Of a stretch of 40,734 nt of DNA, positions 2,707 through 20,656 are shown piece by piece. The stretch covers positions 64,001-104,734 of IMG/VR virus record IMGVR_UViG_3300049203_000077; one strand, 5' to 3'. The DNA comes from a virus. Its lineage: Duplodnaviria; Heunggongvirae; Uroviricota; Caudoviricetes. Under the pieces are notes generated by a model. It saw only the letters and a program-made list of their open reading frames with translations, had not been told where the DNA came from and searched no databases. Each line of letters begins with the position of its first letter. Position 1 is the first letter of the stretch. The translations under genes and the position numbers were made by a program.

Positions 2707-5700
2707 ATGCCACAACAAGACCCAATAAAACCGGGACAAGTAACAAATCTTCCACAGAACAATTACGATCCAAATGCTGAAGCAGGTAGAGTAGTAAATA
2801 AACTTCCATATGTTGCTCCTCCAACTGCTCTTAACTTATTGTTTAATAGTACAGCTCCTACTACTGCAGAAGGTGCTAGTAAGGTGAATCCTGCTTACGC
2901 ATTATATATTAACACATTAAAGAATGCTAATGGAAAACAGGCCTTTTTAAGTCAGCCTTATTACACACCTGAGACAATAGCAGGACGATATGGGGATAAG
3001 GAAATAGGTGGTTATCATCCATATGACATGAACCTTGAAAATTGGTATGGAGATAATCAAAGCTGGTTTAATCAATGGGGAAATCGTCTTGGCAAGCTTG
3101 GAACAAAGGCAATAGGTAGCTTTGCTAATTCCTTAATGGACATTCCAAACATTATAGCTCAATCAGCAACAGGACAAATGTCTCTGGATAAGATGTGGGA
3201 TAATCCAACAAATAGTTGGGCTACTGATCTTATGGAGTGGAGTGAAAAAGCTATGCCTAATTATGAGACAAATTGGGAAAGAGAGCATCCTTTTGCTAAT
3301 CTTATTCCTATTTATGGTGCTCTTCATGGCGGTAGTGCTGCAAACAGCTGGGGCAAAGCAATAGAGAATCTTGGTTTTACTGTGGGTGCTATTGGTGGAG
3401 CTGTAGTAGAAGACTTAATTGTAGGTGGATTAACAGGCGGGGTAGGTGAAGTACCTCTTGCTGCTATGCAAATAAATAAAGCTGTTTATAAGCTAGGTAA
3501 GCTTGTTAATGCAGGAGAGGATTTCTTAGGAGCACTTAAGTCTAACATTAGAAATGCTGATGATATTGTAAAAGGACTTAAAGGAATAGATAGATTCAAT
3601 TATGCTGTTCGTCAAGGACTTTGGGGAGCTAATATGATTACATCAGGTATCTCTGAAGCTGCTTTTGAAGGTATTGAATCTTACAAAACACTATCTAAAG
3701 ACCTTCAACAAAAATATTTTGAAGAAACAGGTAAAGCTCCTTCTTTTGAAGAAAATCAAAAGATAGACGCTCTTGCTAGAGATGCTGCTAACTCTCGTTT
3801 CTTATTAAATACTGCTTTATTAGCAGCAACAAATAGTATTCAATGGGGTAATCTGTTTCGTCCTCTAAACGCTACTAAAGAACTTCTTGAAGCAGAAGCT
3901 AAACAAGGTGTACGTATAGCATTAAAGGAAGGAAGTGTGGACGCTTTCGAAGCTGTAGAACATACTTCCAGACTAGCTAAATGGGGAAAGAACCTTACCG
4001 ATAATAAAGTATCTCAAATTCTATTTGGCTCATCTTCTGAAGGATTTGAAGAAGGCGCTCAATATATTATTGAGAAAGGTATTAACGATTTTTACAAAAG
4101 GAAGTATGAAGATAAGAATATCACTCTTACTAACAACTTTTTAAAATCGTTTGGTACAGGTTTAGCTGAAACATTAGGTACTAAGGAAGGTTGGGAGAAT
4201 ATAGTTCAGGGCCTTCTAGGTGGTGCACTTTATAAAGGTGGGGAACATGCGTATTACAAGGCAAGAGGTATAAATAACAATCCTAACTACAAAAAACAAA
4301 TAGATGCTGTAATTGATGGACTAAACTCCCAATCTCTTACAGGTATATTTGAGAATAAATACGGCACTGCTGTTGAAGCTATGTCTATTCAGCAGGACTT
4401 GCAAGATGCTGCTGCTAAGAATAATGTATTTGCATATAAGAACTATAAGCACGATCAGTTTGTAAACTTTGTTTTAAGTGGTATTCAACAAAATAAGTTT
4501 GATACCCGCCTTGAACAACTTCAAGAATTAAAGAAGCTTGAGGGTTCTGAATTTGAAAAAATGTTTGGTATTCCTTCTAATACAGAGAACAAAAAAACTG
4601 TGTCTGAATATGTAGGCAAATTGGAAGAAAATGCTAAGTATATAAAGGAAATTCACAAAAGGGTATCTCGTACATTTGTTAATCCTTATCAGCTTAAAGG
4701 AACAGGTAACTACAAGAATGCTGAAGAGAAAAAGAGACAAGACGAGGAGAATGAGAAGCACATCATTTACGAGAAGGTAAAAAATGAGCTTGTTCGCTTA
4801 ATGTCTATTTCTAAGGACTCGGCAGATCGCATTAGAGATATGCATAGTCAGATTACTTCTATGCAGACTGTTGTAGACCCTTCAACTGTTATTAAGCTTT
4901 CTTCAATAGAAGGGATACAAGATCTCAAAAAGGAATATAAAGAAAAATTAAAACTTGCTGAGGAATCACTTAAGCTTGCTCCCAATGATGCTAAAAATAA
5001 AAGGGATGTTAAGTGGTATTCTAAGAAAGTATCTGAGATAGAAGATGTTACTAATGAGAAAGATGAGAAAACTCAAAATGTTAAATACAACAAATTTCTA
5101 AATGATGTATTTGATAGAACACAAAAAGAAGATAATAAGTTCTATAAATTATATGGTACTGACTCTCAGAAGTTGTCTGTAGACACTCCTTTTCCAAGAG
5201 ATGTTATTAAGGATTTAACTGATTTGGGAAAAGATATTTATTACTTACAAAAAAGGAATGAGGTTGCCGTTGATAGATATGCTAGTTTAACTACTAAAGG
5301 AGGATTTAAAGAGCACTTTGATAAAGAGGCTACTGCAAGAAAGGAGGCTAATGATTTATTAGTTAATCTACAACAACCTCAGACACAAGGACAAGCAGCG
5401 CAACAACAAGCAGCATTTAATGCTTCTCAAGTACAACAAAATCAAGCACCTACTCCTCAGCCACAAGCAGCTACTACAAATACAACAGCACAAACTCCTT
5501 CTTCTCAACCACCTACAGCAATTCCTCAACAACAAGGATATGTTGAAGAACTTGGTATAATAAAAACAGCAGACGAGGAAAGAGCTGAACTCATCACTTA
5601 CATGATTGAGGCTATTGACGAAAAGAGAGTCTTAAGTGAAATAGAAGCTGAAATCTTAGGCTTTAAGACTATTGACGATTTAAAGTTTGATAATCCTTCA

Positions 5701-8700
5701 GTTAAAGTAGAGGATTATGAAAAAATTAGAACTCAGTCAAAAAGGCACTACTACCTTCACAAAGACACCATAAAGGCTGGTAGAGAGTTCCTAGAAGAAT
5801 ATAACAAAAGACCTTCTACAATATCTAATTTAGTATCTGAGATTGAGAAGAAAAGGAAGGACGCGTTACAAGGTATTAAATTATCGGATGTACAGGTTGG
5901 AGATAAACTACAAGTTTCTTCAAACTTGTCCGGAGGATTTAAAAATAAAGATGTTGTAGTTACTAGAAGATCAAAACTGGGAGTTCAATTTGATAACGAA
6001 AACGTATGGTATAACTTTAAAAATTCTACACTTTCTATAGTTAATTTTAAAAACTATAGTCAAGAAGAAAGAATTAACGCTAAATATGATGCAGAGTTAG
6101 CTGTACTAAGAGGGGGAGCTTCTCAAGAAAGCAATGAAAATCAAGGTGGTGCGCCTCCTATCACTCCTAATGATCCACCTCCTACTACAGGAACAGGAGG
6201 ACTTAGGACTGATGACTTCATGGCAAAAGTATTTGTTCCGGGAGATTTAAAACTCTCGTTTAACAATGCTATATTCTCAGGAACTAGGGATCAAGTTAAG
6301 ACTGGAATGAGTATTCGTGTAAGACCACTGGAGCCTCAATTCCAGCAGCAATTTGATCAACAATCTGCTACAAGATCATATACACAAATGACTGGATTTC
6401 CAGGAGTATATGTGTCTAAAGCACCTGTTGATATTTCTGTTTCACACTTTAATGGTATCGAAGTGAATGAAATAGGTAAAGTAGCCTATCCAAAGAGACT
6501 TTTGTTTAGAGTAGGTAATGACTTTGTTAACATTGACAGGCTTACTCCTGAGCAATATCAACATTTCACTGGCAGGCCAGCAGCTCAACATGCTGCTGAT
6601 GTAGAAGAATATAACAAACAAGTAGCTTTTACAAACTACTTAGCTTTAAGATTTAGAAATAACAATCTACAAGAAATTACTCTCACTCCACAAGAGATTA
6701 ATGAGCTTCTTGATATTGTTATTACTTATGGAGAGTTGGACCTTATACCAGTTGGCCAAGAAAGACCATTATATAATCAGCTAAGACGCAACACTGTATC
6801 TCTTCCTATCTCAACAGGGGGAACATTAAATACAATGGTGATACTGTCTGCTCCTAAACGTCAGATGGATGAAGATGGTGTAATGGTTCGTGAAAGAATA
6901 GGAAGTATCAATCCTATCTATGGACAAAATTTCTATGATAATTCAAGTGCAGATGATAGTGTTATTTTAGATTTTATCAGTAATTCGGCTGACAGTATTA
7001 TTAAAGTGAATTCTCGTTACATAGGACTAGTATCTAAACCAGATGGTAGTTTTTCTCTTATTGCTCTACGTCCAGCAGAAATGGACACTGCTGCTAAAAC
7101 AAGTTTACTCCAAACTCTTATAGATAGATCAACAGAGTCTCTTAGGACAAACTTTGTTCCTTCTACAAAGGAGGAGTCTCCTAAGAATGTATTATTAATA
7201 GGTAATGATGAGGTTTACTATAAACTTCCAAGTGACGCTGCTAAAGACTATAATAAAGATTTCAATGACAATATAAATAATCAAGTGTTTATTTCAGATC
7301 CTAATGGTAAAGTGTGGTTTGAAATTACACTTAGTCCAATTGGAGCTCTTCGCTTGGATATTCATGAACCTAATTCTGGATATAGAAATCGTCTTATTGT
7401 TGCTCCTCAAAAGGTTGGAAAACTTGATTCTTTCCAAGCAATGATTGATGCATTTAATAATGAATTAGTAAAGAAAGAAAAAGATGATGAAACTCTCAGA
7501 GGACTAGCAATAAGACTAAACAGTAGTAACTTTAGGCAAAACATAGCTGATGATAGTAATATTCCTAATGCTGAAGCATTGGCTTCTCAACTAACTGCTG
7601 CTACATCTACAGAGGTATTTAAGAACGGAACAATGAAACTTGTTCCTGATACTGGAAATGTAGCATCAGCTTATAAAAATGCAAGAGGTAGCACACAACA
7701 GGCTACTCCTGAACAAACAGCTCAAGAACAGCCTCCTGTTGCTCCTGAAACTCCAGCTACTCCAGCAATGCCTCAAGGGCTTACTTCTCTTACAGAGCAA
7801 CAACCTCAGGAGTATGGTACACTAGAAGATGTGTTTGGTCCCCAGATTCCTACTGGAATGTTTCAAGGTATGACAGGAGTTCCTGTAGATGAATCAGGAA
7901 ATCCTATTGCACCTATAGAGACTGCTCCTCAAAATCAAGAGGAAGCACAAGGAATTGTTTATACATCTGTTAAGGAAGCATTAAATGCTAATGACATAGA
8001 CTATAGAACAGTAGAAGGTGAAACTCAGTTCTTTAATATTAGTACAGGCCAATTACTTGATCTTCCTGGAGTAGCTCCAAAGGACTTAGCTGATTCTATG
8101 GGACTTACTATTGCACCTCAACAAAGACCTCAGAGAGGTACAGGATTTGACTTTATGCGTTCTGAGCAAAATCTATCTACATTAAACAACATGGTAGATT
8201 TTGAGAATGCTAGAGTGTACATCAATTCTATTCTTCCCTCATTTATTAGTGTGGAGGACATGGATGCTGTAATGAATAAGATTAGAGAGCAAGGAATTGA
8301 AAATCCTGAGAAAAATGTTTGGGGAGCTTTCAAGGATGGGATCATCTATCTTAATAAGCAAGCTCCATCAGCAGGACAAGAGTATCATGAAGCATTCCAT
8401 GCTGTATTTAATTCATTCATTCCTCAAGAAGAACAAAAGTCTCTTCTTAACTATGCTAATGATGAGCTTTACAAAAAGCTTAAGAAAGAAGGAAAATCTA
8501 TTAGAGAATATATTAATGAACAGCGTAAACAAGGAGTATGGACAAATATTTCTGATACCCATGCAGCTAATAAAGCAGCTGAAGAATGGATGGCAGAAAA
8601 GTTTCGCTCATGGAAAAATAAAAAAAAGAACGCAGGTATTCTTCAAAGACTATTTGATTTAATTGATAGATTTTTTAGATGGATAACTAGAAATCAAAAT

Positions 8701-11700
8701 GATCTTAATGCCCTATTCCACAAAATAGATACAGGAGGGTATAAATATTCTAATATAGCTGCTAACTCCTTCACTCAAGAGACAACTGAAGACACTAATA
8801 TTCAGGAGTTTAAATTCATGCTTGTTCCTGCTCGTCCTACGCAAATGGCAGTCGGTAGAGGAACTATTGAAGTAAAGAGAAATCTTGATGCTAAGACATC
8901 TACACAAGTGATTCAAAATGTAGCTGCTTACTTTGAGATGTACAAGAGAATGGGAGAGTACCAGCTGTCTGATGAAAAGTTATTAGACCAAATATTGGAC
9001 GACCTAAAAACTACATACAGCGCAGATAATCCTCTTTATGAAGGAATGACTCAAGAGCAATTAAATATAATAGCTAACTCTGACGAAAACTATATTTATT
9101 CAAATGACGAGACAAGAGCTATTATAAAAGAAGGTGCTAAAGAGTACATTAATTCAATGAATTATTTTGAACAATTCCAGTCTGAGGAACTTGAAGATCA
9201 AGAACAGGATACAGGTGCACCAAGAACTGGATATGATAATAGCTCTGAGAATATTGGAGGATTTAGCTCTCTTCCAGGAATGGTTCGTCATTACTTAGGG
9301 TTTACATCTTATCCTGTAACTAATAGATTTGGTCAATCTACATTAGCTAATGGTAAGCCCGTAATAGCTACAATTGATGCTGTATCAGTTTACTATGGAT
9401 TACTACGTGCTACAGCTAATATCAATGATCCTGTCAGATTCTTTCAGAGAATGATACGCTTTGCTGATAACAATGAGCAGAGTCGTCACTTTGTTAAGAA
9501 ATTCCTCGTTGATACAGGACTTAACGAAGACGCATTAAATGAAGGTAGAATTGAGGCTACCAGAAATAAAGCCTTAGTTGAGCAGGTAAGAAAAGCATTT
9601 AATAAGTATCGTATTGATTATATATTTACAGAGTATGACATGAAGAAGGGTAAATATCGCTCTTATCATGCAAATCGTAGAAATGTAGAAAATGTACAAT
9701 TCGATAAATGGTCTAATGTATTTATTGATGGATACTCTGAGATGAGTGCTGACCAGCAGGCTACTATACGCAGAACTATTGATAACATAAGAAACAGATA
9801 CTTTGATCCAAGAAGGGCTACAAAGAGAACAGCTGATGAAATCAATGTGATAGTTACTGAAGTAAGGAATGCTCTACTTTCAGTAGGTATGCAACTGTCA
9901 TTCGACTATATAAGATATTCATTATTAAGTATTAATGCTAAAAGATTTGATACTCTAAATAAAGAATATAAAGCTCAGGGAGCAGAATTACAGGTTGATG
10001 ATCCACAAAACACATTTATTTCTAAAGCTGATTATAACTATGTTCAGGTAATGAAGATTGCTGATGAAGTTACTTTGAGTAAAGAGTTTATGGATGAGCT
10101 TTCTAGGTCTTTATCAGCTAATGAGAACCCTTATTTTCGTGTATTAAGAGAAGGTGAAGATATTGATGAGGAAGAAGAAAAGTCAAAGGGTGGTATGGTG
10201 ACACGTATCTCAAATGTCGCTAAGGGTAATGCTTTATTTGATGAAACTGTAGGTGAGTCTTCTTATATGAATGCTGATGATAAATTAGTATTTGCTCACC
10301 AAGATGGTACATTTAATGTTAAGGCCTCTTATGCACTTAGAGATGCTGAAACCAGAAGAAGACTTAGAGAGACTGGTATAAGAAATGAGGCTTCTGCAGC
10401 TACAGATTCCTACGATTCTGCATGGTTAACAGATAACTACTTGTTAAACTCTGCTTCATTTGAAGCAGTAGCAGATAATCTATTGTTTCAGAATATAGAT
10501 GGTATTCGTGCTGTAGAAACAAATAAAGAAGGTAAAGTAATTACAGAGGAGTTTAGAGACCAAAAAGAAGGTGTTACCTATGGTTCTTATTCTCCTAGAG
10601 AATTCTTTATTAACCTTACAAATATGTATATCTCTTATGCTAAAGTTCAGAAGACAGCAGCAGGAGATGTTATTACTACTCCTCATCTAATTCGTGTACT
10701 TGAAGCTTCTAAAACAGCTAACACTGTAAACCTACCTATCAACTTAGATGTTTATAGAGAAGGTACAGTAACAGAGAAAACTGCAGATATTCTTTTTAAG
10801 GAGGTGCAAAAAGAGTTCAACAGAATAAAAAGAGTGCAGGGTGAAGTAGGAACTTTAACAGATAGTATAGTGGAAAATTATCATACAGGTAGTTTTGAAG
10901 ATGATGGATTTACTGTAAGAAAGGGTTATCGTGGCCTGAAGTTTACAGATAACATGACTTCCTTATTGACTAAATCTACAGCTAATCTACTTGAAAGGAA
11001 AGCTCGTACAAACCTAGAACTATCTCAAGAAGATGTTGCTACTATTAAACAAGAGATTAAAAACTCTTTAAATAAGATGGTAGATGACGCTATTGATCTG
11101 ATGGTAGCTGAAGGTATTATTAAGATAGGACCTAAAGGTTCTTATCAAAACGTACTTCTTCATCGCGAGTTCTTTGTTCAAGGTAAAGATAGTTTAGGAC
11201 TGAACTTACAAAGTGTTGATAAAGGAGTAAAATTTAAAACGAATATAGGACATGTTCTCATAAATGACTACATTAATACATTAGCGTATAATCAGATTCT
11301 TCATGGTGATCCTGCGTTATCGCTAAAGAATGACGGTGGTATTGATGCTGTAAAACGTGCCAAGGGTGACAATGCTGCAATCACTTCTATTAGAACTGAT
11401 TTGACAGCTCCAGAGCTTGGAATTACTGAAGCATTTACACATTCAAGTGTAGCTATTTTTAAGGAACCTGTTGCTCCAGATGGAACAAAGGTAGCCGATG
11501 CTCAAATGTATGCTACTGTACGTGCTCTTCGTTATACATTATGGGGACTTGGTAGACTTTCTCCACGTTTAGCTAGATTTTTAGACGCCTTAGAAAGAGG
11601 AGATGATATTCACAACTTAACAGATTCAAATGGTGAAACTTATGATGGAGTGTTTGATGATAGTAAAGGCATCTTAAGATGGGATGAAATGACTAACTCT

Positions 11701-14055
11701 TTAAAACTCGTATTTAAAGATGGTAAGACATACTACAAAATGTCTGTAGTTATTCTTCAACCAAATCTTACTGCTAGAAGGAATGAGCAAGGTGAGTGGA
11801 TAACTCGTCCGGGATGGGAAACCCTCGATAGTCTTAGAAGAAAGATGGAGAAAGACAGAATACATTTTGCTGCTCCAGAATCAGCTTCTAAAATGATGAC
11901 TTTAGATGTATCTAAAGCTGAAGACTTCTCAGACTTAAAAGGACATTTAGTTGATAATCAGTATTTTGGACTACAAACAGAAAATCCTTCTAATAAGCTT
12001 GAAATTACTACACCTACTCAGTTATTACAATTGATTGATTCTGAGCAAGATGATAGTGTAGAAGTAGTGTTCCAAGGCACAAGAACTAGTGTTGGAGAAG
12101 TTAAGAGAATTTATCAAGAGTCTGTAGCTCAGAAAGTAGTAAACTCTTATGATACAGCTCTTAATGAAATATACGATATTACAGAGTTTAATGAAGATAT
12201 GGATACTTTGATTGTTAATGGTCATGTAACTCCTCGTCTTGCTAAATTCTATCAGCGTATATCTTCTACATTAGAGTCATCAGGTAGTGATGCGCAATTA
12301 TTAGACTTCTTCTCATTAGATGAGAATGGAAATATTAGGTTTAACGCTAACCTATCAGCAATTAAAACTAAATCTCAACAGCTTTATCTGTCATACTTTT
12401 CTAAAGGAGTTCTTTCTCAGAAGAATCCTGGTTATACTGTAGCTCTGTTCTCAGGTATTGATACTAAAACTTCTAGAATAGCTAAAAGGGTTGAGAATGG
12501 AGTTGTTACAGAATGGGCTTACGTTAGAAGAGATGAATGGGACGCTAACCATAATGGGGTGAGAGATCAACAGATACTTGGTTCTAAAGATCAAGTGACT
12601 GAAGAAGGGCAATTATTCTTGGATGAACTTCAATACATGGTCCCTAAATATAATTATGAGGGAGAAGTAGAAGGGTATTATTCAGAAATGATGCTTCCTG
12701 CTCATTTTAAAGAGCTTCTTGGTCTTAGACCAGGGGATGAAATTCCTGATGCTATAGCTTATATGTTTGGTGTACGTATTCCTTCTCAAGATAAACACTC
12801 ATTCATTTCTTTAAAACTAATAGACTTCTTACCAGCTAACTTAGGGTCTACAGGTATGTTCCCTAAGGAGTTGATTAAACTATCAGGTGCTGACTTTGAC
12901 ATTGATAAACTCTTTATTACTAGATATGACTTCTATCTTACTAAAGATGCAGATGGCAATCCTAAATTTAATAAATATGGTGATGCTACGAATGATAGGG
13001 GTAGATGGATGGAGTATAAGAGATGGATGTTAGAAAACAATAAGTCTCTTAAAAACACTGTAAGAGATATTCTTTTACAAGACGCTACTTATCAGGAGCT
13101 TAAAGATGAGCAGCAGGTATTAAGAGAGCTTCAGATGGAAGAAGCATTTGACGATGCTGCTAGACAATTAAAAAAGCAACTTTATGACAGAGCTGTTTCT
13201 CAAGCTTTAGCGTATCTAAAACTTCCTTCTACACTAGAGCAGTTTACAGAAGCCTCAAGAACTAAAGAACTAAATAATGGTGTTCTGAATAATAGAATAC
13301 TAGATAGTTATCGTACTCTTTTAACAAATAGGGGAATGCATGAAATTGCTGCTACACCTGCTAGCTTAACAGCTCTACAGGACATTCAGGATGAGAATGA
13401 CATTACGTTGAGAGATGCTCAAGGAAATAAAATAGGCTCTGTTTTTCAAAAGAAAACAAATTATCCAGTAGATAGTTTAATGGGTAAATTCTATGGATTT
13501 AAGAATAACACTACAGGCAAAAACAATATTGGTATTGATGTTAATGCTAACTTAATATATTCAGTAGCTAATAAAGGAGATATATCCTTAACAGACCCTG
13601 AAGAAGGATTTGAAATGGACAGTAAGAAGTTTTCTAGCTTTTCTGGAAATAGAGAATATAATTTAGAAACTGAGCAGTTTGATGGAAAACGTACAAATGA
13701 CGTTCTTTCTACATTAATTACAGCTGCTACAGATGAGGCTAAAGAACAGTTAAATGCCTTGTATAACTTAGGAGTGGATGCTCTGAAAGTAGTAAACTAC
13801 TTGGTAGCTCTTAAAGTTCCTTTAAAGACAGCCATCTACTTTGTAAACCAGCCTTCTATTCGTAACTACTTGGATATTAAGGCTGTAAAGCAAAATACAA
13901 TTCAAACTAAAGAAGAAGAGAATCTCTATAGAGATGCCTTCAGGCAAGAAGCTGTATTAAAAACTCAAAAACAAATTAAGGATTATAAGGACATGTCTGA
14001 CAGCGAGCTATTCAGCATGTTTGAGGCTAATAGTTTAGTGGAGGTAAGATGTTAA
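2707..14055 (+). CDS. Giant virion-packaged DNA-dependent RNA polymerase of crAss-like type (3782 aa) with zincin-like metallopeptidase domain
   Basis: Catalytic GADFDIDKLF (DFDID at 12892-12906, residue 3396 onward) preceded by RIPSQDKHS; HEAFH zincin motif at 8386-8400; Gly-rich hydrophobic N-terminal segment; Q/P/T-rich linkers between domains. Confidence 0.9.
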   Translation: MPQQDPIKPGQVTNLPQNNYDPNAEAGRVVNKLPYVAPPTALNLLFNSTAPTTAEGASKVNPAYALYINTLKNANGKQAFLSQPYYTPETIAGRYGDKEIGGYHPYDMNLENWYGDNQSWFNQWGNRLGKLGTKAIGSFANSLMDIPNIIAQSATGQMSLDKMWDNPTNSWATDLMEWSEKAMPNYETNWEREHPFANLIPIYGALHGGSAANSWGKAIENLGFTVGAIGGAVVEDLIVGGLTGGVGEVPLAAMQINKAVYKLGKLVNAGEDFLGALKSNIRNADDIVKGLKGIDRFNYAVRQGLWGANMITSGISEAAFEGIESYKTLSKDLQQKYFEETGKAPSFEENQKIDALARDAANSRFLLNTALLAATNSIQWGNLFRPLNATKELLEAEAKQGVRIALKEGSVDAFEAVEHTSRLAKWGKNLTDNKVSQILFGSSSEGFEEGAQYIIEKGINDFYKRKYEDKNITLTNNFLKSFGTGLAETLGTKEGWENIVQGLLGGALYKGGEHAYYKARGINNNPNYKKQIDAVIDGLNSQSLTGIFENKYGTAVEAMSIQQDLQDAAAKNNVFAYKNYKHDQFVNFVLSGIQQNKFDTRLEQLQELKKLEGSEFEKMFGIPSNTENKKTVSEYVGKLEENAKYIKEIHKRVSRTFVNPYQLKGTGNYKNAEEKKRQDEENEKHIIYEKVKNELVRLMSISKDSADRIRDMHSQITSMQTVVDPSTVIKLSSIEGIQDLKKEYKEKLKLAEESLKLAPNDAKNKRDVKWYSKKVSEIEDVTNEKDEKTQNVKYNKFLNDVFDRTQKEDNKFYKLYGTDSQKLSVDTPFPRDVIKDLTDLGKDIYYLQKRNEVAVDRYASLTTKGGFKEHFDKEATARKEANDLLVNLQQPQTQGQAAQQQAAFNASQVQQNQAPTPQPQAATTNTTAQTPSSQPPTAIPQQQGYVEELGIIKTADEERAELITYMIEAIDEKRVLSEIEAEILGFKTIDDLKFDNPSVKVEDYEKIRTQSKRHYYLHKDTIKAGREFLEEYNKRPSTISNLVSEIEKKRKDALQGIKLSDVQVGDKLQVSSNLSGGFKNKDVVVTRRSKLGVQFDNENVWYNFKNSTLSIVNFKNYSQEERINAKYDAELAVLRGGASQESNENQGGAPPITPNDPPPTTGTGGLRTDDFMAKVFVPGDLKLSFNNAIFSGTRDQVKTGMSIRVRPLEPQFQQQFDQQSATRSYTQMTGFPGVYVSKAPVDISVSHFNGIEVNEIGKVAYPKRLLFRVGNDFVNIDRLTPEQYQHFTGRPAAQHAADVEEYNKQVAFTNYLALRFRNNNLQEITLTPQEINELLDIVITYGELDLIPVGQERPLYNQLRRNTVSLPISTGGTLNTMVILSAPKRQMDEDGVMVRERIGSINPIYGQNFYDNSSADDSVILDFISNSADSIIKVNSRYIGLVSKPDGSFSLIALRPAEMDTAAKTSLLQTLIDRSTESLRTNFVPSTKEESPKNVLLIGNDEVYYKLPSDAAKDYNKDFNDNINNQVFISDPNGKVWFEITLSPIGALRLDIHEPNSGYRNRLIVAPQKVGKLDSFQAMIDAFNNELVKKEKDDETLRGLAIRLNSSNFRQNIADDSNIPNAEALASQLTAATSTEVFKNGTMKLVPDTGNVASAYKNARGSTQQATPEQTAQEQPPVAPETPATPAMPQGLTSLTEQQPQEYGTLEDVFGPQIPTGMFQGMTGVPVDESGNPIAPIETAPQNQEEAQGIVYTSVKEALNANDIDYRTVEGETQFFNISTGQLLDLPGVAPKDLADSMGLTIAPQQRPQRGTGFDFMRSEQNLSTLNNMVDFENARVYINSILPSFISVEDMDAVMNKIREQGIENPEKNVWGAFKDGIIYLNKQAPSAGQEYHEAFHAVFNSFIPQEEQKSLLNYANDELYKKLKKEGKSIREYINEQRKQGVWTNISDTHAANKAAEEWMAEKFRSWKNKKKNAGILQRLFDLIDRFFRWITRNQNDLNALFHKIDTGGYKYSNIAANSFTQETTEDTNIQEFKFMLVPARPTQMAVGRGTIEVKRNLDAKTSTQVIQNVAAYFEMYKRMGEYQLSDEKLLDQILDDLKTTYSADNPLYEGMTQEQLNIIANSDENYIYSNDETRAIIKEGAKEYINSMNYFEQFQSEELEDQEQDTGAPRTGYDNSSENIGGFSSLPGMVRHYLGFTSYPVTNRFGQSTLANGKPVIATIDAVSVYYGLLRATANINDPVRFFQRMIRFADNNEQSRHFVKKFLVDTGLNEDALNEGRIEATRNKALVEQVRKAFNKYRIDYIFTEYDMKKGKYRSYHANRRNVENVQFDKWSNVFIDGYSEMSADQQATIRRTIDNIRNRYFDPRRATKRTADEINVIVTEVRNALLSVGMQLSFDYIRYSLLSINAKRFDTLNKEYKAQGAELQVDDPQNTFISKADYNYVQVMKIADEVTLSKEFMDELSRSLSANENPYFRVLREGEDIDEEEEKSKGGMVTRISNVAKGNALFDETVGESSYMNADDKLVFAHQDGTFNVKASYALRDAETRRRLRETGIRNEASAATDSYDSAWLTDNYLLNSASFEAVADNLLFQNIDGIRAVETNKEGKVITEEFRDQKEGVTYGSYSPREFFINLTNMYISYAKVQKTAAGDVITTPHLIRVLEASKTANTVNLPINLDVYREGTVTEKTADILFKEVQKEFNRIKRVQGEVGTLTDSIVENYHTGSFEDDGFTVRKGYRGLKFTDNMTSLLTKSTANLLERKARTNLELSQEDVATIKQEIKNSLNKMVDDAIDLMVAEGIIKIGPKGSYQNVLLHREFFVQGKDSLGLNLQSVDKGVKFKTNIGHVLINDYINTLAYNQILHGDPALSLKNDGGIDAVKRAKGDNAAITSIRTDLTAPELGITEAFTHSSVAIFKEPVAPDGTKVADAQMYATVRALRYTLWGLGRLSPRLARFLDALERGDDIHNLTDSNGETYDGVFDDSKGILRWDEMTNSLKLVFKDGKTYYKMSVVILQPNLTARRNEQGEWITRPGWETLDSLRRKMEKDRIHFAAPESASKMMTLDVSKAEDFSDLKGHLVDNQYFGLQTENPSNKLEITTPTQLLQLIDSEQDDSVEVVFQGTRTSVGEVKRIYQESVAQKVVNSYDTALNEIYDITEFNEDMDTLIVNGHVTPRLAKFYQRISSTLESSGSDAQLLDFFSLDENGNIRFNANLSAIKTKSQQLYLSYFSKGVLSQKNPGYTVALFSGIDTKTSRIAKRVENGVVTEWAYVRRDEWDANHNGVRDQQILGSKDQVTEEGQLFLDELQYMVPKYNYEGEVEGYYSEMMLPAHFKELLGLRPGDEIPDAIAYMFGVRIPSQDKHSFISLKLIDFLPANLGSTGMFPKELIKLSGADFDIDKLFITRYDFYLTKDADGNPKFNKYGDATNDRGRWMEYKRWMLENNKSLKNTVRDILLQDATYQELKDEQQVLRELQMEEAFDDAARQLKKQLYDRAVSQALAYLKLPSTLEQFTEASRTKELNNGVLNNRILDSYRTLLTNRGMHEIAATPASLTALQDIQDENDITLRDAQGNKIGSVFQKKTNYPVDSLMGKFYGFKNNTTGKNNIGIDVNANLIYSVANKGDISLTDPEEGFEMDSKKFSSFSGNREYNLETEQFDGKRTNDVLSTLITAATDEAKEQLNALYNLGVDALKVVNYLVALKVPLKTAIYFVNQPSIRNYLDIKAVKQNTIQTKEEENLYRDAFRQEAVLKTQKQIKDYKDMSDSELFSMFEANSLVEVRC

Positions 14056-14074
14056 CAATAATCATCACTTCCAC

Positions 14075-14116
14075 TTACCTTCATAAAAAAGTGTAATTAA
14101 ATTAGTATATTTGCTT
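14075..14116 (+). promoter_or_regulatory. Internal promoter (TATATTTG at 14106-14113), near-copy of the 155-197 promoter
   Basis: 37 of 43 positions identical to 155-197 by manual alignment; ATG is 5 nt after the box. Confidence 0.7.
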
Positions 14117-14117
14117 T

Positions 14118-16697
14118 ATGGCTTGTACTTATGTCGTAAAAAATAGTGCTGGAGAGGAAATCTCATTTAATAGTCAAGGGGAAGCTCTTCAATATCTCAA
14201 GGATAATAATATAGCTGAGTCTAGCGTTAAAGGAGAACCTGCACGTAACACTGCTACGTTAGCTAATGTGTTACGTCAAGTAGCTTTTGGAGAAAATAAT
14301 TATTCTCCTGAACAACTGCGTGTCTTCCAAGAACAAATGTTGGATGAGTTTATAAGAATGGAAGAACAATCTCAGTTCTTCTATAAGATGGGTAGTCCCA
14401 TTGCCCTTACAAAAGGTTTGGGAAAGAGCTTTGATCAGATGGCAGGAGTTGTTAAAAATCTTACTGATCTTGGTATTGGACTTCCTGCTGATACTGAAAT
14501 AGATGCTCCGTTTGATGTGCGATATCTTCTTTCAGGAGAAGACAGATATAGATCTGCTGATCAAAATCCTTATTATCATAAGATTACTGCGAATAACATT
14601 AAGATAATGAAGGATGTTTATTCTTTGAGTAAGACAATGTTTATGGAGCAAGCTCCTTCCTTTATGAATATATCAGATAGAGTGATATCAAATCTTAAAG
14701 GAGGTCTGGCTGATGACATTGATAAAGTGAGAGAGATTAAAGATGATTTGGCAGCCTTCTTACAAATAGCTGCTTACAAACAGTGGATAGACGTAAATGA
14801 TAAGAAAACAAGTACATTACATAACAGTCTTATTTATGATACTGAAGGAACTACTTCTACTGTTGTAGATATTGTTAAAGAAGCTATTGCACTCTCTCCT
14901 GATAATACTTTCTTAAAATTTATTCTCCCTGTAAGCACCACTGTAAAAATAGGAAAAAGAAAGGTAAGAAACATAAATAATAAGGATATTATTAATACTA
15001 TCGAAGGTAAAACTCGTGGTAAAATAGAACCAGACCTTATTGCTAACATGATGGACTCATTCTCAGAACTTTATCTAAATCCTAGAACTCAATATCATGC
15101 TAAAGCACTATTTGATTACCTTATAGTGAAAGATGGTTTGATGTATAGAAATAAGTCGTTTATTAAAATGATTCCTACATTCATGTTCAAGGAGATGTCT
15201 AATGCTACTGATCTAGCTACAGAACTTCTCTCCCTTTCTCAAAGAGCTGAATTTAGTAGGTTTCTTAGAAAGATAGACACTCTGGAAATAGTAGATTCTG
15301 AAGGAAACTATAGAAGCTATTTCTCAGATGCTGATAGACAGCAATTCAATGATCTGTTTAGAAATAATGACCTTTTAGGTATAAAAAATAAATTATATGA
15401 AAAAGTTTTTGGTCTTAACTACAATCAACTTTATAATAGGTTTGAACAGATTTATGCTACAGATGCCCGGTATCAGTTTAATTTGGAGCTAATTAGGACT
15501 AAGGTAAAACCTGCGACAGGTCCAGCAAGGACGGCTAACGGTATAGCCTTTGCGGAGGATGCTGGAGTTCGTTATTTACACGTAGGTATGTTTACTGAGA
15601 AATTTAGAGCTACAGAAGAAGGTAGTGAAGAAAGATCTAAAGTGTTTAGGGAAACAATGGAAGATCTTGCTGCGGCTGGATTTAACAGTGTAAAAGTTGG
15701 GGAAGATAAAACAAATCTTCAATTTAAGAAATTTATTCGTATAAGAAGAAGTGCAGGAACATCACCTACAGGGGAACAAAAAATTGTATATGTTACGTAT
15801 CAACTTGTAAATGTTGAAAGACAAGGAGCAAATAATAGAACACAAGCTTTCTCAGGAGCAGCTATGACTGCAGAAGGTGAGTCTATTCCTAGAGGTGTTT
15901 ATGCTGTTTATGCTCCTGTAGATATTGTAGGTACATCAAACTCTACAGGCGTAGCTAATTTAGGACCGCGTCCTACAAAAGAACAAGTGATTCAAACTCT
16001 CAATAATAAGTTAAGAGGTGGTGGACAAAATCCTCCAGCAGCACCTACTACTGAGCCTTCTGGTCCTACTGGTGGTACACCTATAAGCGGTGGAACCTAT
16101 TCAGGACAAATAACTTCTCTTAGTGAGAATCAAGTATTTGTGTTTGGTTCTAATCCACTAGGTGTAAATGGAAATCCTGATAAAGGAACTGGTGGAGCAG
16201 CTCTTTCAGCTCTTAAAAATGGATGGGTGAAACAAGGTGAGAAAATGGACAATAAGGTGTCTGATTCTGGGAAGGCTTATGGTTTAACAACCGTAACTGC
16301 TCCCGGAACTAAAAGAAGTATGACTGCTGAACAGATAACAAGCGGCATTGAGAAACTCTACAAACTTGCTTATGGTAACCCTCAGAAACAATTCCTTATA
16401 GCTTATATGGGTAAGACAGGAAATAATCTGAATGGGTATTCTAACCAAGAGCTTGCAGATATGTTCTCAGCATTTGTTATTCCACCAAATATTATTTTTG
16501 AGAAAGACTTTAATACACTAATTACTAGAAAGACTCCTACTTCTAAAACAGAATCAACAGGAATAGTACAAGGAGGTATATTTGGAGGAATGCAACAAAT
16601 GCCTTTTGATCCTAATGATCTTTCAGGATTTGATGCAGGTTTTTTTACTGATAGTAGTAGTATTGATGACACATTAGACAAACTAGATGACTGTTAA
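14118..16697 (+). CDS. Virion cargo protein (859 aa): probable split-off C-terminal part of the vRNAP plus a C-terminal macro-like (FVFGSN / A1S_2505-type) domain
   Basis: Follows an RNAP ORF that ends only about 386 aa after DFDID; G/P/T linker, then QVFVFGSN...GTGGAA...KAYGLTT...PQKQFLIAY...GYSNQELADMF (16110-16526). Confidence 0.7.
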   Translation: MACTYVVKNSAGEEISFNSQGEALQYLKDNNIAESSVKGEPARNTATLANVLRQVAFGENNYSPEQLRVFQEQMLDEFIRMEEQSQFFYKMGSPIALTKGLGKSFDQMAGVVKNLTDLGIGLPADTEIDAPFDVRYLLSGEDRYRSADQNPYYHKITANNIKIMKDVYSLSKTMFMEQAPSFMNISDRVISNLKGGLADDIDKVREIKDDLAAFLQIAAYKQWIDVNDKKTSTLHNSLIYDTEGTTSTVVDIVKEAIALSPDNTFLKFILPVSTTVKIGKRKVRNINNKDIINTIEGKTRGKIEPDLIANMMDSFSELYLNPRTQYHAKALFDYLIVKDGLMYRNKSFIKMIPTFMFKEMSNATDLATELLSLSQRAEFSRFLRKIDTLEIVDSEGNYRSYFSDADRQQFNDLFRNNDLLGIKNKLYEKVFGLNYNQLYNRFEQIYATDARYQFNLELIRTKVKPATGPARTANGIAFAEDAGVRYLHVGMFTEKFRATEEGSEERSKVFRETMEDLAAAGFNSVKVGEDKTNLQFKKFIRIRRSAGTSPTGEQKIVYVTYQLVNVERQGANNRTQAFSGAAMTAEGESIPRGVYAVYAPVDIVGTSNSTGVANLGPRPTKEQVIQTLNNKLRGGGQNPPAAPTTEPSGPTGGTPISGGTYSGQITSLSENQVFVFGSNPLGVNGNPDKGTGGAALSALKNGWVKQGEKMDNKVSDSGKAYGLTTVTAPGTKRSMTAEQITSGIEKLYKLAYGNPQKQFLIAYMGKTGNNLNGYSNQELADMFSAFVIPPNIIFEKDFNTLITRKTPTSKTESTGIVQGGIFGGMQQMPFDPNDLSGFDAGFFTDSSSIDDTLDKLDDC

Positions 16698-16699
16698 AT

Positions 16700-19600
16700 A
16701 TGAAATGTAGCGTAATAAGAAATAGTAATAATGAAATTCAACAAGTATTGGCTTCAAATGGTGAGGAGTCAATACTTTTTAATATCCTTGATAGAGTATT
16801 GAATGATAAGGAAAAGGCTCTAAGACTATGGGCTACCACTTATACTCCTGACTTCAAGAAGAAATTCAAAGGAGAACGAGATGAGAATGGCGAACCTCTT
16901 TTAAGAGAGATTTCCTCTATGGTTGAAATGGATAATCCTAATGCTAGTGACAGCATCTATTTTCAGAAAGGAGATAACTCTTCATTTGAACTATTCGGAA
17001 AGATTCAAACAATTGCTCAGAAGCTAAATAACAGATTCAATATTCCCTATAGTATTATTAATGATCCCAGCAATCCTAATAGAGGATGGTTTGGGGTTAA
17101 TGGTGTGGTTATTAATTTAGCTCATGCTAAGAAAGATACAGTGTTTCATGAATATTTACACCCATTTATTCTAGCTGTACAACAGCAGAATCCCTTTCTT
17201 TATAAAGACTTATTAGTTCAACTTAGCAGTGATTTAGAAGGAATTAAAGTAATAGGTGAAGTAACTAGAAAATATCCTGAGCTTACTAAAGAGCAACAAA
17301 TGAATGAAGCTTTAGTAGAGTATTTAGGAAAACTATCAGCTCAAAAATATAACACTCCAAAATCTCCTTTTAATCGTTTTATTAACTGGTTAAAATCTTT
17401 ATTTAAGAAGATACAAATTGATCCTAAGAACTTTAGGATTGATATGACTCTTGATGAAGTTGCTGATTTAATAGTAGATGATATTTATGTAGCCGACTTA
17501 CGAGCTATTCTTCAAGATGCTAAGATACAAACGGTATATCAAAAGCCTGACACAGACTTAACATATGAGTCTGTTTATCAAAGAATTAAAGATAAAGTAT
17601 CTATCCTAAACAGAACAATTAAGAATAGAAAGAAAGGTGACCAATTTAAGGAAGATATTAGTGTGCTTAATGAAATCATCCAAAATCAGGATGAGATAAC
17701 GTCTATAAATAACTTTATATCAAACTCAATATACTATATTGACGCAGCTAAGAAAAGATTTGAGACTTTAAGAGATTCTGTAAGAAAAGCTGATCAGCTA
17801 ACAAAGGATCAACTTTCTTATAATTTGAATATTCTTGGTGAAATTCAGCAGCTTTTGAACGTATACAACTCATTAGATAGTGTCAAATCTCTTTTGTTTA
17901 GGGAGGGTATTGGATACGACAATCCAAGATTTCAAGAACTTGCTACAGCTATAGATCAAAAAAATCAGATTATTGAGGATTTTAAATCATTCAGCCTCAC
18001 CTATCTAACAGAATGGTTATTTCCATATCTTGAGCCTACAAATAGAAACTTAGAAGCTCAAGGCAAACAAAACATGATGATTACTAAAGATCAATTCAGA
18101 GAGCAATTAGTAATGGCTTTAAGAGATATTTCTGCTGCTGGATATTGGTTAGGTACAACTATCAATAGTCGTGATCCTGTATCTGCTGCCGTAGGATTGG
18201 CTCTTAAAGATGTGGTGTATGATAATCATCTAAAAGACCTTGATACAAAGAAAGAGCTTACAAATGAATATGAAAGGGCAAGAGGTTCAGCTCTTTACAA
18301 AAGCTCCAAAGACGAAGAGACTTTTAACAAAGAGTTCTTAAGAGAAGTTGAAGTATGGGAGAAAGTGGGAGTTGATCCTGAAACAGGTGAAGATAAATAT
18401 GATTACAGAAGACGTTTAGCCTTTTATCAAGAGTACCAACTGGATCAATTTGACAAGGCCAAGAAAGAATTTTATAGACAACTTGGGCCTAAACCTACTA
18501 ACGATGCAAAAGCTTTAAGAGCTTGGAACAAAGCCCAAAGTGAATGGTATGCTCAGAATACACAAATTCACCCTGATTATCAAAGAATTATAAGTGAGAA
18601 AAGAAGAACTCTTACTAAGAGACAATTTGAAGAGTGGTGGTTAACAAATACTAAAGAGATAGATGAATTGGATTATGGATATGGTAGAAAACTCTCTCAT
18701 TATTATGGAAGAAGAGTATTACAGAACTCTTTTAACCCAACAAAAGGAACATTTCGTGCTCTTTCCGGTGAGCTTATTAGGCCTGCGGAAAAATACAAGG
18801 ATAGGAAGTTTTCTACTCTTATGAATAATGCTTATTATAGGAAACTCTATAATTCTTATAAAGAAGCTAATGACAAACTTGGAAGTTTTGGACTTAAATA
18901 TGGTATTATTCCACAGCTATCTAAAGGACAAAATGCTTTTTCTGATTTAGAATGGAAAGATGGAGTTAAGAAAAATCTAGGGAAAGCCTGGAAAGGAGTG
19001 AAGGATTCTATTACGGCTAACTTTGATGAGGAAAAAACTGTTCAAAGACAAGATGGTGCTGAGGTTAAGAAAGTGCCGGTTTACTACACAACAATGTTAA
19101 ATCCAAGTGATCTTAAACTAGATTTACTTGAAGGTGTTCTAAAGTATAGTCAGATGGCAAATAACTACTCTACTATGACTGAAATTGAGCCTAATATTAT
19201 TGTTCTTAAAACTGTACTTAATGGAGACTTTAATCTAGGTATTAAAGGTAGAGATGTAGCTAAAACAAACTCTAAGGGTATTCAAGTATTCAATGCTATT
19301 ACTAAGAAAGTGGTTCCTAAGATGGCGCGTGAAGACATGCTGAATAATCGTTTAAACGAGTTTATTAATGACATTGTTTACGGAGATGCAGAGTTTGAAC
19401 AAGCTATTAATATGGGTGGAAGAGAAGTATCTTTAAACAAGCTATCTAATAAGGTGGCACTACTTACAGCATTACAAAACATGGCGGTTAACGTAAATGG
19501 AGGTATAAGTAACGTTATTGTAGGTAACTTTAACAATACTATTGAAGCTATGGGTAGACGCTTCTATTCAGCAAAAGACTATGCTTGGGCTCAAGGAGTA

Positions 19601-20656
19601 TACGCTAGGGAGCTTCCTTCTCTAGTAGCTGAAACAGTTGGAAAGGGAGATTCTTTTCTAAACAAACTAGCAGATCACTATGATGTTCCTCAAGGTGAAT
19701 TTAAGGATCATTATGGAGAAAATGTTTCTAAGGGAACATTCAATAAATTAATGAAAACCAGCACTTTATTCTTTTTACAGAAAGGGGGTGAACATCAGAT
19801 TCAGGTGACAGGAATGCTTTCTTTAATGCACTCTGTTAAATTAACTGATTCTAAAACAGGAGAGCAAACAAGTCTTTATGCTGCTATGAAAGAGACCAAT
19901 GGAAATCTCGATGAAATGGCGTCAAAATTTGGATGGAGTGTAGAAGACGATAAAGCTTTTAGAAATAGGTTACATGCTGTTGTTAAAAATCTACAAGGTG
20001 TGTATAATAGTTTTGATAAAGCTATGTTATCAAGACGTTGGTATGGTAAACTAGCACTTATGTTTCGTAAATATCTTTTTAAAGCTATGCAGTCAAGATG
20101 GGGTGAGAAGTATGTAGATTATGAGCTTGGAACAGATGATGGTGGATATTGGAGAGAATTTATGAGTAAGTTTTATAAAGATGTTAAAGAGTATAAATGG
20201 GGAGCTATTCAAAGAATGTGGACTAAAGATGGATATGATGAGTTTCAGAAATCAGCTATTAATAAATCTTTATATGAATTTAGTGTTATCTTAGCTACAT
20301 TTGTTCTTATAGGACTTATTGGAAGTGGAGATGAGGATGACAAGTGGTTAGATAATGAAATGCAACTTCAACTTACACGGTTTAGTGCAGATATTACTCA
20401 GTATATCAATCCATCAGACTTTATTCGTGTGATTCGTAATCCTGCAGCTTCTATTAACATGATGGAAAAATGGATAAGTTGGTTTACTCAGATATTTAGT
20501 CCATTTGAAGAGTATGAAAGGGCTTCTGGCATAGCTGAAAAAGGAGATAATAAGCTGTATATTAAGACGTTAAAACTAATGCCTGTTGTTAGGCAACTCA
20601 TTAATTTTCTAACCCCGGAAGAGCAAATTAAATTCTATAAACTTACTGGTAGATAA
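16700..20656 (+). CDS. Large virion cargo/ejection protein with zincin-like HExxH domain (1318 aa)
   Basis: TVFHEYLHPF (17147-17161) followed by NEALVEYLG; C-terminal hydrophobic segment FSVILATFVLIGLIG; last gene of the giant cluster. Confidence 0.75.
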   Translation: MKCSVIRNSNNEIQQVLASNGEESILFNILDRVLNDKEKALRLWATTYTPDFKKKFKGERDENGEPLLREISSMVEMDNPNASDSIYFQKGDNSSFELFGKIQTIAQKLNNRFNIPYSIINDPSNPNRGWFGVNGVVINLAHAKKDTVFHEYLHPFILAVQQQNPFLYKDLLVQLSSDLEGIKVIGEVTRKYPELTKEQQMNEALVEYLGKLSAQKYNTPKSPFNRFINWLKSLFKKIQIDPKNFRIDMTLDEVADLIVDDIYVADLRAILQDAKIQTVYQKPDTDLTYESVYQRIKDKVSILNRTIKNRKKGDQFKEDISVLNEIIQNQDEITSINNFISNSIYYIDAAKKRFETLRDSVRKADQLTKDQLSYNLNILGEIQQLLNVYNSLDSVKSLLFREGIGYDNPRFQELATAIDQKNQIIEDFKSFSLTYLTEWLFPYLEPTNRNLEAQGKQNMMITKDQFREQLVMALRDISAAGYWLGTTINSRDPVSAAVGLALKDVVYDNHLKDLDTKKELTNEYERARGSALYKSSKDEETFNKEFLREVEVWEKVGVDPETGEDKYDYRRRLAFYQEYQLDQFDKAKKEFYRQLGPKPTNDAKALRAWNKAQSEWYAQNTQIHPDYQRIISEKRRTLTKRQFEEWWLTNTKEIDELDYGYGRKLSHYYGRRVLQNSFNPTKGTFRALSGELIRPAEKYKDRKFSTLMNNAYYRKLYNSYKEANDKLGSFGLKYGIIPQLSKGQNAFSDLEWKDGVKKNLGKAWKGVKDSITANFDEEKTVQRQDGAEVKKVPVYYTTMLNPSDLKLDLLEGVLKYSQMANNYSTMTEIEPNIIVLKTVLNGDFNLGIKGRDVAKTNSKGIQVFNAITKKVVPKMAREDMLNNRLNEFINDIVYGDAEFEQAINMGGREVSLNKLSNKVALLTALQNMAVNVNGGISNVIVGNFNNTIEAMGRRFYSAKDYAWAQGVYARELPSLVAETVGKGDSFLNKLADHYDVPQGEFKDHYGENVSKGTFNKLMKTSTLFFLQKGGEHQIQVTGMLSLMHSVKLTDSKTGEQTSLYAAMKETNGNLDEMASKFGWSVEDDKAFRNRLHAVVKNLQGVYNSFDKAMLSRRWYGKLALMFRKYLFKAMQSRWGEKYVDYELGTDDGGYWREFMSKFYKDVKEYKWGAIQRMWTKDGYDEFQKSAINKSLYEFSVILATFVLIGLIGSGDEDDKWLDNEMQLQLTRFSADITQYINPSDFIRVIRNPAASINMMEKWISWFTQIFSPFEEYERASGIAEKGDNKLYIKTLKLMPVVRQLINFLTPEEQIKFYKLTGR

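Follow-up and report, generated by a model that had tools for sequence, protein, structure and literature searches.

Terminal cysteines in the giant RNA polymerase cargo proteins of Crassvirales suggest end-to-end tying of separate chains

Described cargo systems and the locus

No phages of the human gut are more abundant than the Crassvirales. How they move cargo amounting to megadaltons, a giant RNA polymerase among it, along a narrow tail and in the correct order is an open problem. The cargo proteins of Cellulophaga phage phi14:2 are known in the virion by mass spectrometry. In crAss001 the cargo proteins gp47, gp49 and gp50 were seen by mass spectrometry and are thought to be partly unfolded during tail passage, while the authors of the structural paper left the ordering of ejection open (PMC10172136). 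The DNA analysed here, referred to as the window, is the right-hand 40.7 kb (40,734 nucleotides) of the 104.7-kb IMG/VR virus record IMGVR_UViG_3300049203_000077. It contains three consecutive giant genes, here named R, B and C, which form a module homologous to gp67-gp66-gp65 of phi14:2 (polymerase gp66, PDB 6VR4) and to gp47-gp50-gp49 of crAss001, in the same position after the muzzle and C1/C2 cargo genes. The three modules share the DFDxD motif, giant cysteine-poor virion proteins, and a succession of cysteine at the C-terminal end only, at both ends, and at the N-terminal end only. The window differs from phi14:2 and crAss001 in that the junction between the gp47-like protein and the polymerase is fused, while the polymerase itself is cut.

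Single-gene crAss RNA polymerase 'polyprotein' forms, to which Drobysheva et al. and Yutin et al. drew attention, contain the same domains in the same order as R-B-C. The phi14:2 preprint reported that the three proteins are fused in some phages and assumed a proteolytic cleavage (bioRxiv 10.1101/2020.03.07.982082). Compared with these single-gene forms, the split forms seem to rebuild a continuous chain via cysteine pairs, which reduction, and not a protease, would separate.

The ejection proteins of the Schitoviridae (gp50, gp51 and gp52 of N4; gp71, gp72 and gp73 of DEV) are similar to the crass proteins in that a giant virion RNA polymerase is ejected partly unfolded via a narrow tail and cysteine is suppressed. 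In that family the suppression is strong, leaving no cysteine at all, and was attributed to passage through the periplasm (PMC11445570). The N4 virion RNA polymerase has been described as beads on a string, an arrangement thought to help ejection, and the N4 literature raises the question of what connects the N4 single chain with the three crass proteins (PMC13434306). The Schitoviridae polymerase is a single polypeptide, whose overall structure is described as fundamentally unlike that of gp66, and carries no terminal cysteines or pairs. The crass system, unlike the Schitoviridae, keeps exactly those cysteines that would join separate chains. When R, B and C were compared with the cysteine-free Schitoviridae ejection operons, cysteine suppression was found, but the cysteine count was not zero and the polymerase was of the two-barrel DFDxD type and not a T7-like single-subunit enzyme. 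R, B and C resemble Schitoviridae ejection proteins in part and are not members of that group.

Inter-subunit disulfides have been described in the gp57 dimer, the tail hub and the ring proteins of crAss001 virions (PMC10172136). Those bonds are formed and lasting in the particles and hold folded subunits side by side, whereas the cargo links proposed below would run end to end, lie in ejected proteins and have to be reversible. A full-text literature search, with most subscription papers outside its reach, gave no mention of terminal cysteine pairs or cargo disulfides in crassviruses, and neither the crAss001 structural paper nor the phi14:2 preprint mentions cargo cysteines. The cysteine depletion of N4-like ejected proteins and the fusion of the three crass proteins were already known; the terminal cysteine pairs appear to be undescribed.

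Cysteine positions in the window and across Crassvirales

The cargo block of the window comprises four co-directional open reading frames (ORFs) on the plus strand, as are the features located within them below. These are A (831 amino acids (aa), 209-2704), R (3782 aa, 2707-14055), B (859 aa, 14118-16697) and C (1318 aa, 16700-20656). Together they contain 4 cysteines in 6790 aa, every one at residue 3 or at the last residue. An earlier reading of the DNA, made from the letters and their translations (the sequence-only reading), had given these counts and coordinates, and all proved correct on recount, so that the observation of terminal-only cysteine is confirmed. The only cysteine of R is its last residue, with the protein ending in ...LVEVRC (TGT, 14050-14052) followed by a TAA stop codon. 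B starts with MAC (Cys3 codon TGT, 14124-14126) and ends in ...KLDDC (TGT, 16692-16694), and the only cysteine of C is residue 3 of its MKC start (TGT, 16706-16708). The cargo-block protein A has no cysteine and lies outside the cysteine-linked set. The spacer between R and B (14056-14117) is 62 nucleotides long and AT-rich, and the gap between B and C is 2 nucleotides.

The genome background, taken from the 84 other ORFs of the 104.7-kb record, was 1.26% cysteine, which gives an expectation of approximately 86 cysteines in 6790 aa compared with the 4 observed. The binomial probability of four or fewer in A, R, B and C was approximately 8e-32, and the chance of the four falling at these terminal positions was approximately 5e-12. 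A 949-aa ORF directly upstream of the window (G000 61295-64144), homologous to the C1 cargo protein gp45 of crAss001 (E 6e-28), also contains no cysteine. The phage does not shun cysteine in proteins that are not ejected, as the large subunit of its ribonucleotide reductase (35177-37819, minus strand) has a TSCPD domain and a cysteine-rich C-terminus with 8 cysteines in the last 60 residues.

The depletion and the terminal placement were both retained among metagenomic homologues. In the B family (39 homologues, 40-81% identity) Cys3 was present in 36 of 39, the other three having truncated or mis-called starts. All 39 had a cysteine among their final five residues, which in 34 of them was the terminal residue itself, and the single internal cysteine in 31,872 aa was due to a mis-called start. 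The C family (46 homologues, identity down to 20%) includes members that share with C just the first ~70 residues. Cysteine was nevertheless found in the first seven residues of 45 of 46, with 7 internal cysteines in 70,303 aa. In the R family (120 homologues of 2.4-5.4 thousand aa) the last seven residues contained a cysteine in 112 of 120, with 46 internal cysteines in 523,136 aa. Over the three families internal cysteine amounted to 0.003-0.01% of 625,000 aa, against the 1.26% of the genome, while terminal cysteine was kept in 93-100% of approximately 205 homologues. The cysteine was invariant in every terminal alignment (A1 for the R tail, A2 for the B head and A3 for the C head), and no conserved His, Asp or Glu partner column was found beside it near the termini.

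The same scheme was observed in 13 named genomes drawn from the Steigviridae, Intestiviridae, Suoliviridae and the epsilon group. In phi14:2 the cysteine of g067 (1797 aa) is the last residue, g066 (2180 aa) has Cys3 and Cys2179, and g065 (1421 aa) has Cys3. In crAss001 gp47 has a cysteine at 2339 of 2341, gp50 at 5, 1334 and 2404 of 2412, and gp49 at 5; cr85_1 has the same triad. The epsilon phage csAssE-Sib has a 2208-aa protein ending in cysteine and a 752-aa protein with Cys5 and Cys751, while its gp49 homologue lies 8 kb downstream in a region that opens with an MTSTC ORF. A two-member version is present in the Intestiviridae p-crAssphage, cr8_1, cr11_1, cr3_1, cr271_1 and cr110_1, in the Suoliviridae cr125_1 and cr55_1 and in the marine loci L004, L007 and L008. 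In this version one protein has a cysteine within four residues of its end and the next protein has one at residue 3-5 (MSC, MAC, MQC, MANNC or MSIIC).

The sequence-only reading had expected paired terminal cysteines to recur in homologous clusters, and they were kept in the approximately 205 homologues, as well as in every one of the 13 sampled genomes of named crassviruses. Its expectation that the partner genes would be adjacent did not hold, as crAss001 and cr85_1 encode the first partner on the other strand and the epsilon phage has its third gene 8 kb away. The opposite-strand partners indicate that adjacency is not required and that the signal acts at the protein level. Judged from the sequences, the terminal-cysteine rule holds across the order and suggests an undescribed end-to-end tying of the cargo proteins.

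Several features of individual genomes were recorded alongside these counts. In csAssE-Sib the 281-aa MTSTC ORF (L012 30430-31275) overlaps, in another frame, the annotated start of the 1885-aa gp49 homologue (L012 31175-36832), which may reflect a frameshift, a sequencing error or two genes. The cargo genes of cr125_1 (L018, Suoliviridae) contain 5-78 in-frame stops each under table 11, consistent with stop-codon reassignment, and the terminal-cysteine rule still holds in them; such reassignment is known in some crassviruses. The annotated start of the cr110_1 gene (L019 16014-29267), MLDIAINN..., puts its first cysteine at residue 17. In the sister phage cr11_1 the protein begins with MSC, so that the true cr110_1 start is probably 14 codons downstream, and the MxC signature may aid the correction of such start calls. 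Thioredoxins are encoded a few kb from the cargo module in p-crAssphage (L009 30624-30902 and 31622-31891) and cr8_1 (L013 30450-30719), and would be of interest if thiol chemistry matters in cargo assembly or release.

Gene junctions, terminal connectors and the docking model

The positions of the cysteines were found to follow the points at which the chain is cut. About 83 of the 120 giant R homologues run without a stop into a B-like region and have no cysteine pair at that junction. The R|B cut was found solely in the clade of the window, where both cysteines are present. P0106 and P0108, the two fusions closest to the window, lack precisely the 16 C-terminal aa of R together with approximately 30 N-terminal aa of B, and the flanks align on both sides; the deleted segments are those bearing the cysteines. 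In locus L005 the chain is split elsewhere, near R residue 1800, with the C-terminal part of R fused to B. A new cysteine pair is present at the new cut (...KQCK / MVIC...) and none at the fused R-B junction. The gp47|polymerase (gp47|gp50) junction has a cysteine pair in crAss001, phi14:2 and others, and is fused and cysteine-free in R. The absence of a pair at the fused gp50|gp49 junction was read from lists of cysteine positions and not from an alignment, phmmer being too insensitive to map this junction onto the fused p-crAssphage gp44 or the 4422-aa protein of cr8_1. A link between the cysteines of consecutive pieces predicts that both are gained when a gene splits and both are lost when genes fuse, a behaviour hard to square with links to other partners.

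The deleted segments define two short connectors. The R tail connector ELFSMFEANSLVEVRC (14005..14052) is missing from the R-B fusions P0106 and P0108, and its cysteine is invariant in A1. The B head connector MACTYVVKNSAGEEISFNSQGEALQYLKDNNI (residues 1-32, 14118..14213) is the region in which approximately 30 residues are deleted in these fusions, and its M1, C3 and Y5 are invariant in A2. At the second junction the B tail (residues 807-859, 16536..16694), ending in ...FFTDSSSIDDTLDKLDDC, is conserved past a swapped cassette and aligns to the end of P0108 at 43% identity. The facing C head module (residues 1-69, 16700..16906) runs from MKCSVIRNSNNEI to DENGEP, and Cys3 is the sole invariant column of A3. 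The C head module also tops otherwise unrelated proteins of 1,450-2,170 aa (P0076-P0087) and the middle member of the epsilon crassvirus. The types of B tail and C head co-vary, DxLDxLDxC occurring with MxCSVIRN and FFTDEQ..C with MWCDIK, but this tracks two clades and is not independent evidence. The sequence-only reading had described both cysteine-ending C-termini as acidic, which is clearly the case for the B tail, while the R tail is just mildly acidic. The motif it had proposed as shared by the B and C N-termini was not recovered, as no likeness was found beyond MxC and hydrophobic residues, and profile-profile comparison gave five columns with an E value of 0.078.

A complex of the last 150 aa of R and the first 150 aa of B was modelled, giving an interface score (ipSAE) of 0.79 (runs 0.81, 0.79 and 0.75), compared with 0.28 for the best of three controls. 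In the calibration of the tool, 58 out of 80 solved complexes attained the mark passed here, as did 2 out of 110 mismatched pairs; these figures are rough in the present case, since custom alignments were used. Contact agreement between runs was at least 81% and the predicted local distance difference test (pLDDT) of the partner was at least 67. The predicted interface takes in residues 145-150 of the modelled R piece, which belong to the tail connector, and residues 1-7 of B, as well as the conserved cores of both pieces, which fits two halves of one fold. The model supports docking of the R tail on the B head with both cysteine-bearing ends in the interface, as the sequence-only reading had proposed for these terminal peptides.

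The proteins were identified by comparison with known members. Residues 107-2014 of R match crAss001 gp47, and its C-terminal part matches the RNA polymerase catalytic subunit gp44 of p-crAssphage (E 2e-15). R contains the catalytic-loop polymerase motif DFDID at residues 3396-3400 (12892..12906). Both phi14:2 g066 (residue 1361) and crAss001 gp50 (residue 1483) have the DFDxD motif, as does p-crAssphage gp44. R is thus composed of a gp47-like N-terminal half and most of the two-barrel virion RNA polymerase, and B of the head connector, the C-terminal part of the polymerase, a swappable cassette and the cysteine-ending tail. C is a homologue of crAss001 gp49 (E 1e-45) and phi14:2 gp65 (g065, E 9e-30). 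The label of virion RNA polymerase given to the 3782-aa protein by the sequence-only reading needs amending, as R is a gp47-like protein fused to most of the polymerase and the C-terminal part of the polymerase sits in B.

When the sequences of R, B and C were searched directly against solved structures there was no match, and profiles of the R tail and B head gave no significant match; fold comparison alone supplied the connection to 6VR4. It was run on the fused homologue P0108, in a region approximately 54-57% identical to R, and not on the chains of the window. The model of its R-B junction (P0108:3868-4224, pLDDT 74) matched residues 1586-1816 of phi14:2 gp66 (6vr4_A) with a VIA Z of 10.5 and a root-mean-square deviation of 5.3 over 219 residues, the next match scoring 4.4. 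Foldseek alone gave a weak match (E 0.61, prob 0.84). The fold match indicates that R and B are two halves of one fold, and in the model the R|B cut falls inside the polymerase fold, mapping between gp66 residues 1586 and 1816. On the DFDxD motif, the homology to known members and the fold match of the fused homologue, R-B-C belong to the Crassvirales virion-packaged RNA polymerase cargo module. Homology and gene position suggest that the three proteins are packaged and ejected in this uncultured phage.

The B cassette (residues 665-818, 16110..16571) is a phrog_2072-type domain of unknown function. In homologues it is exchanged for cpYpsA (PF12694), NADAR (PF08719) or DUF7831 (PF25176), with the cysteine tail retained. 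Phages of Vibrio, Aeromonas and Shewanella, the Sphingomonas PAU phage and Bacteroides jumbo phages carry the phrog_2072 domain too, and the cassette resembles an exchangeable injected-effector cassette. In many C homologues (P0043-P0051, P0064, P0066 and others; L004 24004-28350) an ART-PolyVal ADP-ribosyltransferase (PF18760) is inserted right after the 70-residue MxC head, an insertion that the C of the window does not have. The polyvalent proteins of phages and conjugative elements, reportedly described by Iyer, Burroughs, Anand, de Souza and Aravind in 2017, are said to carry swappable effector cassettes. Domains of that type occur in B and C homologues (ART-PolyVal PF18760, NADAR PF08719, cpYpsA PF12694 and LPD-type PF18838), while B and C of the window have no Pfam match and B carries phrog_2072 only. 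To our knowledge an MxC head with a cysteine tail is not part of the description of polyvalent proteins.

PHROGs and Pfam gave no match for R or C, and for B phrog_2072 only, with no Pfam match. A had no PHROG match and a weak Pfam match to Enolase_C at residues 527-611 (E 2.4e-5 over 85 aa) that is probably spurious; L004 (828 aa, E 3e-269) and L005 each have an orthologue of A in the same place, ahead of their giant gene. Megablast against phages gave no close relative, and a scan of viral contigs gave no relatives with B and one with C (L001). The neighbouring genes encode a holin-like protein, a lysozyme, a pectate-lyase-like fibre, RecA, ThyX and ribonucleotide reductase, which fits a crAss-like genome.

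Proposed link, competing explanations and meaning

We consider it probable, although well short of certain, that the termini serve as docking modules and that a disulfide locks them together in the virion. The cargo would then be ejected as one linear thread and split by reduction in the cytoplasm. Conservation, the association with fission and fusion and the docking of R on B all support the sequence-only reading in this respect, as far as sequence comparison and modelling reach; from them we infer the disulfide chemistry, the docking of B on C, threading as one unit and reductive release. R, B and C would be consecutive pieces of one ancestral Crassvirales cargo unit (gp47-like, two-barrel virion RNA polymerase, gp49/gp65-like) that lineages encode as one, two or three genes. 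At each cut the new C-terminus and the new N-terminus would each gain a short docking module with a single cysteine, and the remaining cysteines would be purged from the cargo proteins, preventing loops and branches. In the assembling particle each tail would dock on the head that follows, that of R on B and that of B on C, and the disulfide would form between the two cysteines once the virion leaves the reducing cytoplasm. As the bond would join a last residue to a residue 3, the product would be an unbranched thread of approximately 5,960 residues with continuous N-to-C polarity, and this is the sole disulfide geometry able to pass a narrow channel as a single strand. The thread would resemble the natural single-gene fusions and the single-chain N4 polymerase, and could travel down the tail in a partly unfolded state. 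Once in the host cytoplasm the pieces would be separated by thioredoxin-type reduction, although they may stay associated non-covalently. As disulfides do not survive in the cytoplasm, the bond would serve its purpose in the particle or in the course of ejection. In its fuller form, the proposal is that cargo genes are concatenated post-translationally into a disulfide thread of approximately 6,000 residues that serves as the ejection unit, host reductases performing the 'cleavage' and thereby gating the start of phage transcription; we give this tentative extension slightly less than an even chance.

Several observations weigh against the proposed disulfide thread. Particles are assembled in a reducing cytoplasm and the habitat of gut crassviruses is anoxic, which casts doubt on when and whether the bond forms; the bond itself is a proposal drawn from sequence and a model. 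The docking model used custom unpaired alignments, covers the R-B junction only and gives no Cys-Cys distance. Since R and B together make up a solved fold that has been split, a passing model shows that the halves fit and not that they are covalently linked. Cysteine is not strictly terminal in the eight exceptions of the R family, which keep NPLNDEC and then have a low-complexity extension of 12-58 residues. The gut Intestiviridae and Suoliviridae allow several internal cysteines (0.14-0.49%). In p-crAssphage gp47, a homologue of the C1 cargo protein (L009 5234-7807), the lone cysteine at 856 of 857 has no evident N-terminal partner; this protein may homodimerise or have another partner. Finally, many of the homologues are related, so that sequence counts overstate the number of independent events.

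The R-B model passes without a covalent bond, and the termini might dock with their cysteines unoxidised, as ligands of a bridging zinc or iron or as packing residues, the link being non-covalent throughout. Acidic residues often beside the C-terminal cysteine (DDC, DEC, EC) could complete such a metal site, and cytoplasmic assembly and the anaerobic nature of the gut hosts speak for unoxidised cysteines. In the terminal alignments, however, cysteine alone is invariant and A1, A2 and A3 contain no second or third ligand column, so that a two-residue bond fits better than a metal site. Mere packing would not call for a single cysteine in 6,000 residues; the purge of the others points to thiol chemistry sensitive to mispairing, and crassvirus virions demonstrably contain disulfides. 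A non-covalent clasp is therefore regarded as rather unlikely. The disulfides could instead act mainly as a redox switch, keeping the split polymerase inactive or compact in the virion until reduction activates it, with the order of ejection set by other contacts. The R|B cut lies inside the polymerase fold, so junction geometry could influence activity; regulated activation of crAss virion RNA polymerases has been proposed (bioRxiv 10.1101/2020.03.07.982082) and C-terminal autoinhibition is described in N4 (PMC13434306). Such a switch appears unlikely, given that cysteine pairs also occur at junctions distant from the catalytic part (gp47|gp50 and gp50|gp49), that fused forms do without them and that a link at the extreme termini barely restrains conformation.

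We assign a very low likelihood to the terminal cysteines tethering the cargo proteins individually to portal, capsid-interior or tail proteins of the virion rather than to one another. The many inter-subunit disulfides of crAss001 structural proteins and the unpaired near-terminal cysteine of p-crAssphage gp47 are consistent with such tethers, but the numbers of N-end and C-end cysteines balance in nearly every genome examined, the two cysteines of a junction vanish together on fusion and arise together on fission, and the modelled termini of R and B dock on each other. In the window a TGT-TAA is followed 11 or 71 nucleotides on by ATG-NNN-TGT, an arrangement that recalls ribosome bypass between matched cysteine codons of the T4 gene 60 type, and the connectors are missing from fused homologues as the excised pieces of a split intein would be; either would yield a true fused polyprotein. 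Bypass, which needs matched take-off and landing codons in cis on one mRNA with a stop beside the take-off codon, is contradicted by partner genes on opposite strands (crAss001, cr85_1) or 8 kb apart (the epsilon phage), by mismatched cysteine codons (TGC and TGT) at 3 of 15 junctions and by the 1-58 residues between cysteine and stop in many homologues. In a split intein the cysteine (or Ser/Thr) would lie at extein-intein borders and not, as here, at the free split ends, and the connectors total approximately 46 aa against more than 100 aa for the two intein halves together. The phi14:2 and crAss001 proteins are, moreover, annotated or reported as separate virion proteins. Ribosome hopping and the split intein, both wildly improbable, were rejected on gene arrangement, codon mismatches and cysteine position. 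A neutral origin, in which cysteine was purged merely for crossing an oxidising periplasm and terminal cysteines were tolerated, has a documented precedent for the suppression in Schitoviridae ejected proteins (PMC11445570). Those proteins, however, have no cysteine even at their termini, and in Crassvirales the terminal cysteines are the best-conserved residues at 20-30% identity and track gene boundaries, with the positional chance in the window at approximately 5e-12. This conservation contradicts neutral tolerance, which is exceedingly unlikely.

If the disulfide thread is correct, a giant cysteine-free protein with an MxC start or a cysteine end would be a signature for ejected cargo in metagenomes, and the two cultured systems, phi14:2 and crAss001, allow direct testing. 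A conserved end-to-end thiol link would provide a concrete mechanism of ejection. In the fuller form of the proposal it would also amount to a protease-free, redox-driven way of processing a polyprotein, and would set general terms on which genes of ejected proteins can be split or fused. It would also explain how these genes could fuse and split freely in evolution, why cysteine was purged from their products, and how the three crass proteins relate to the single-chain enzyme of N4.

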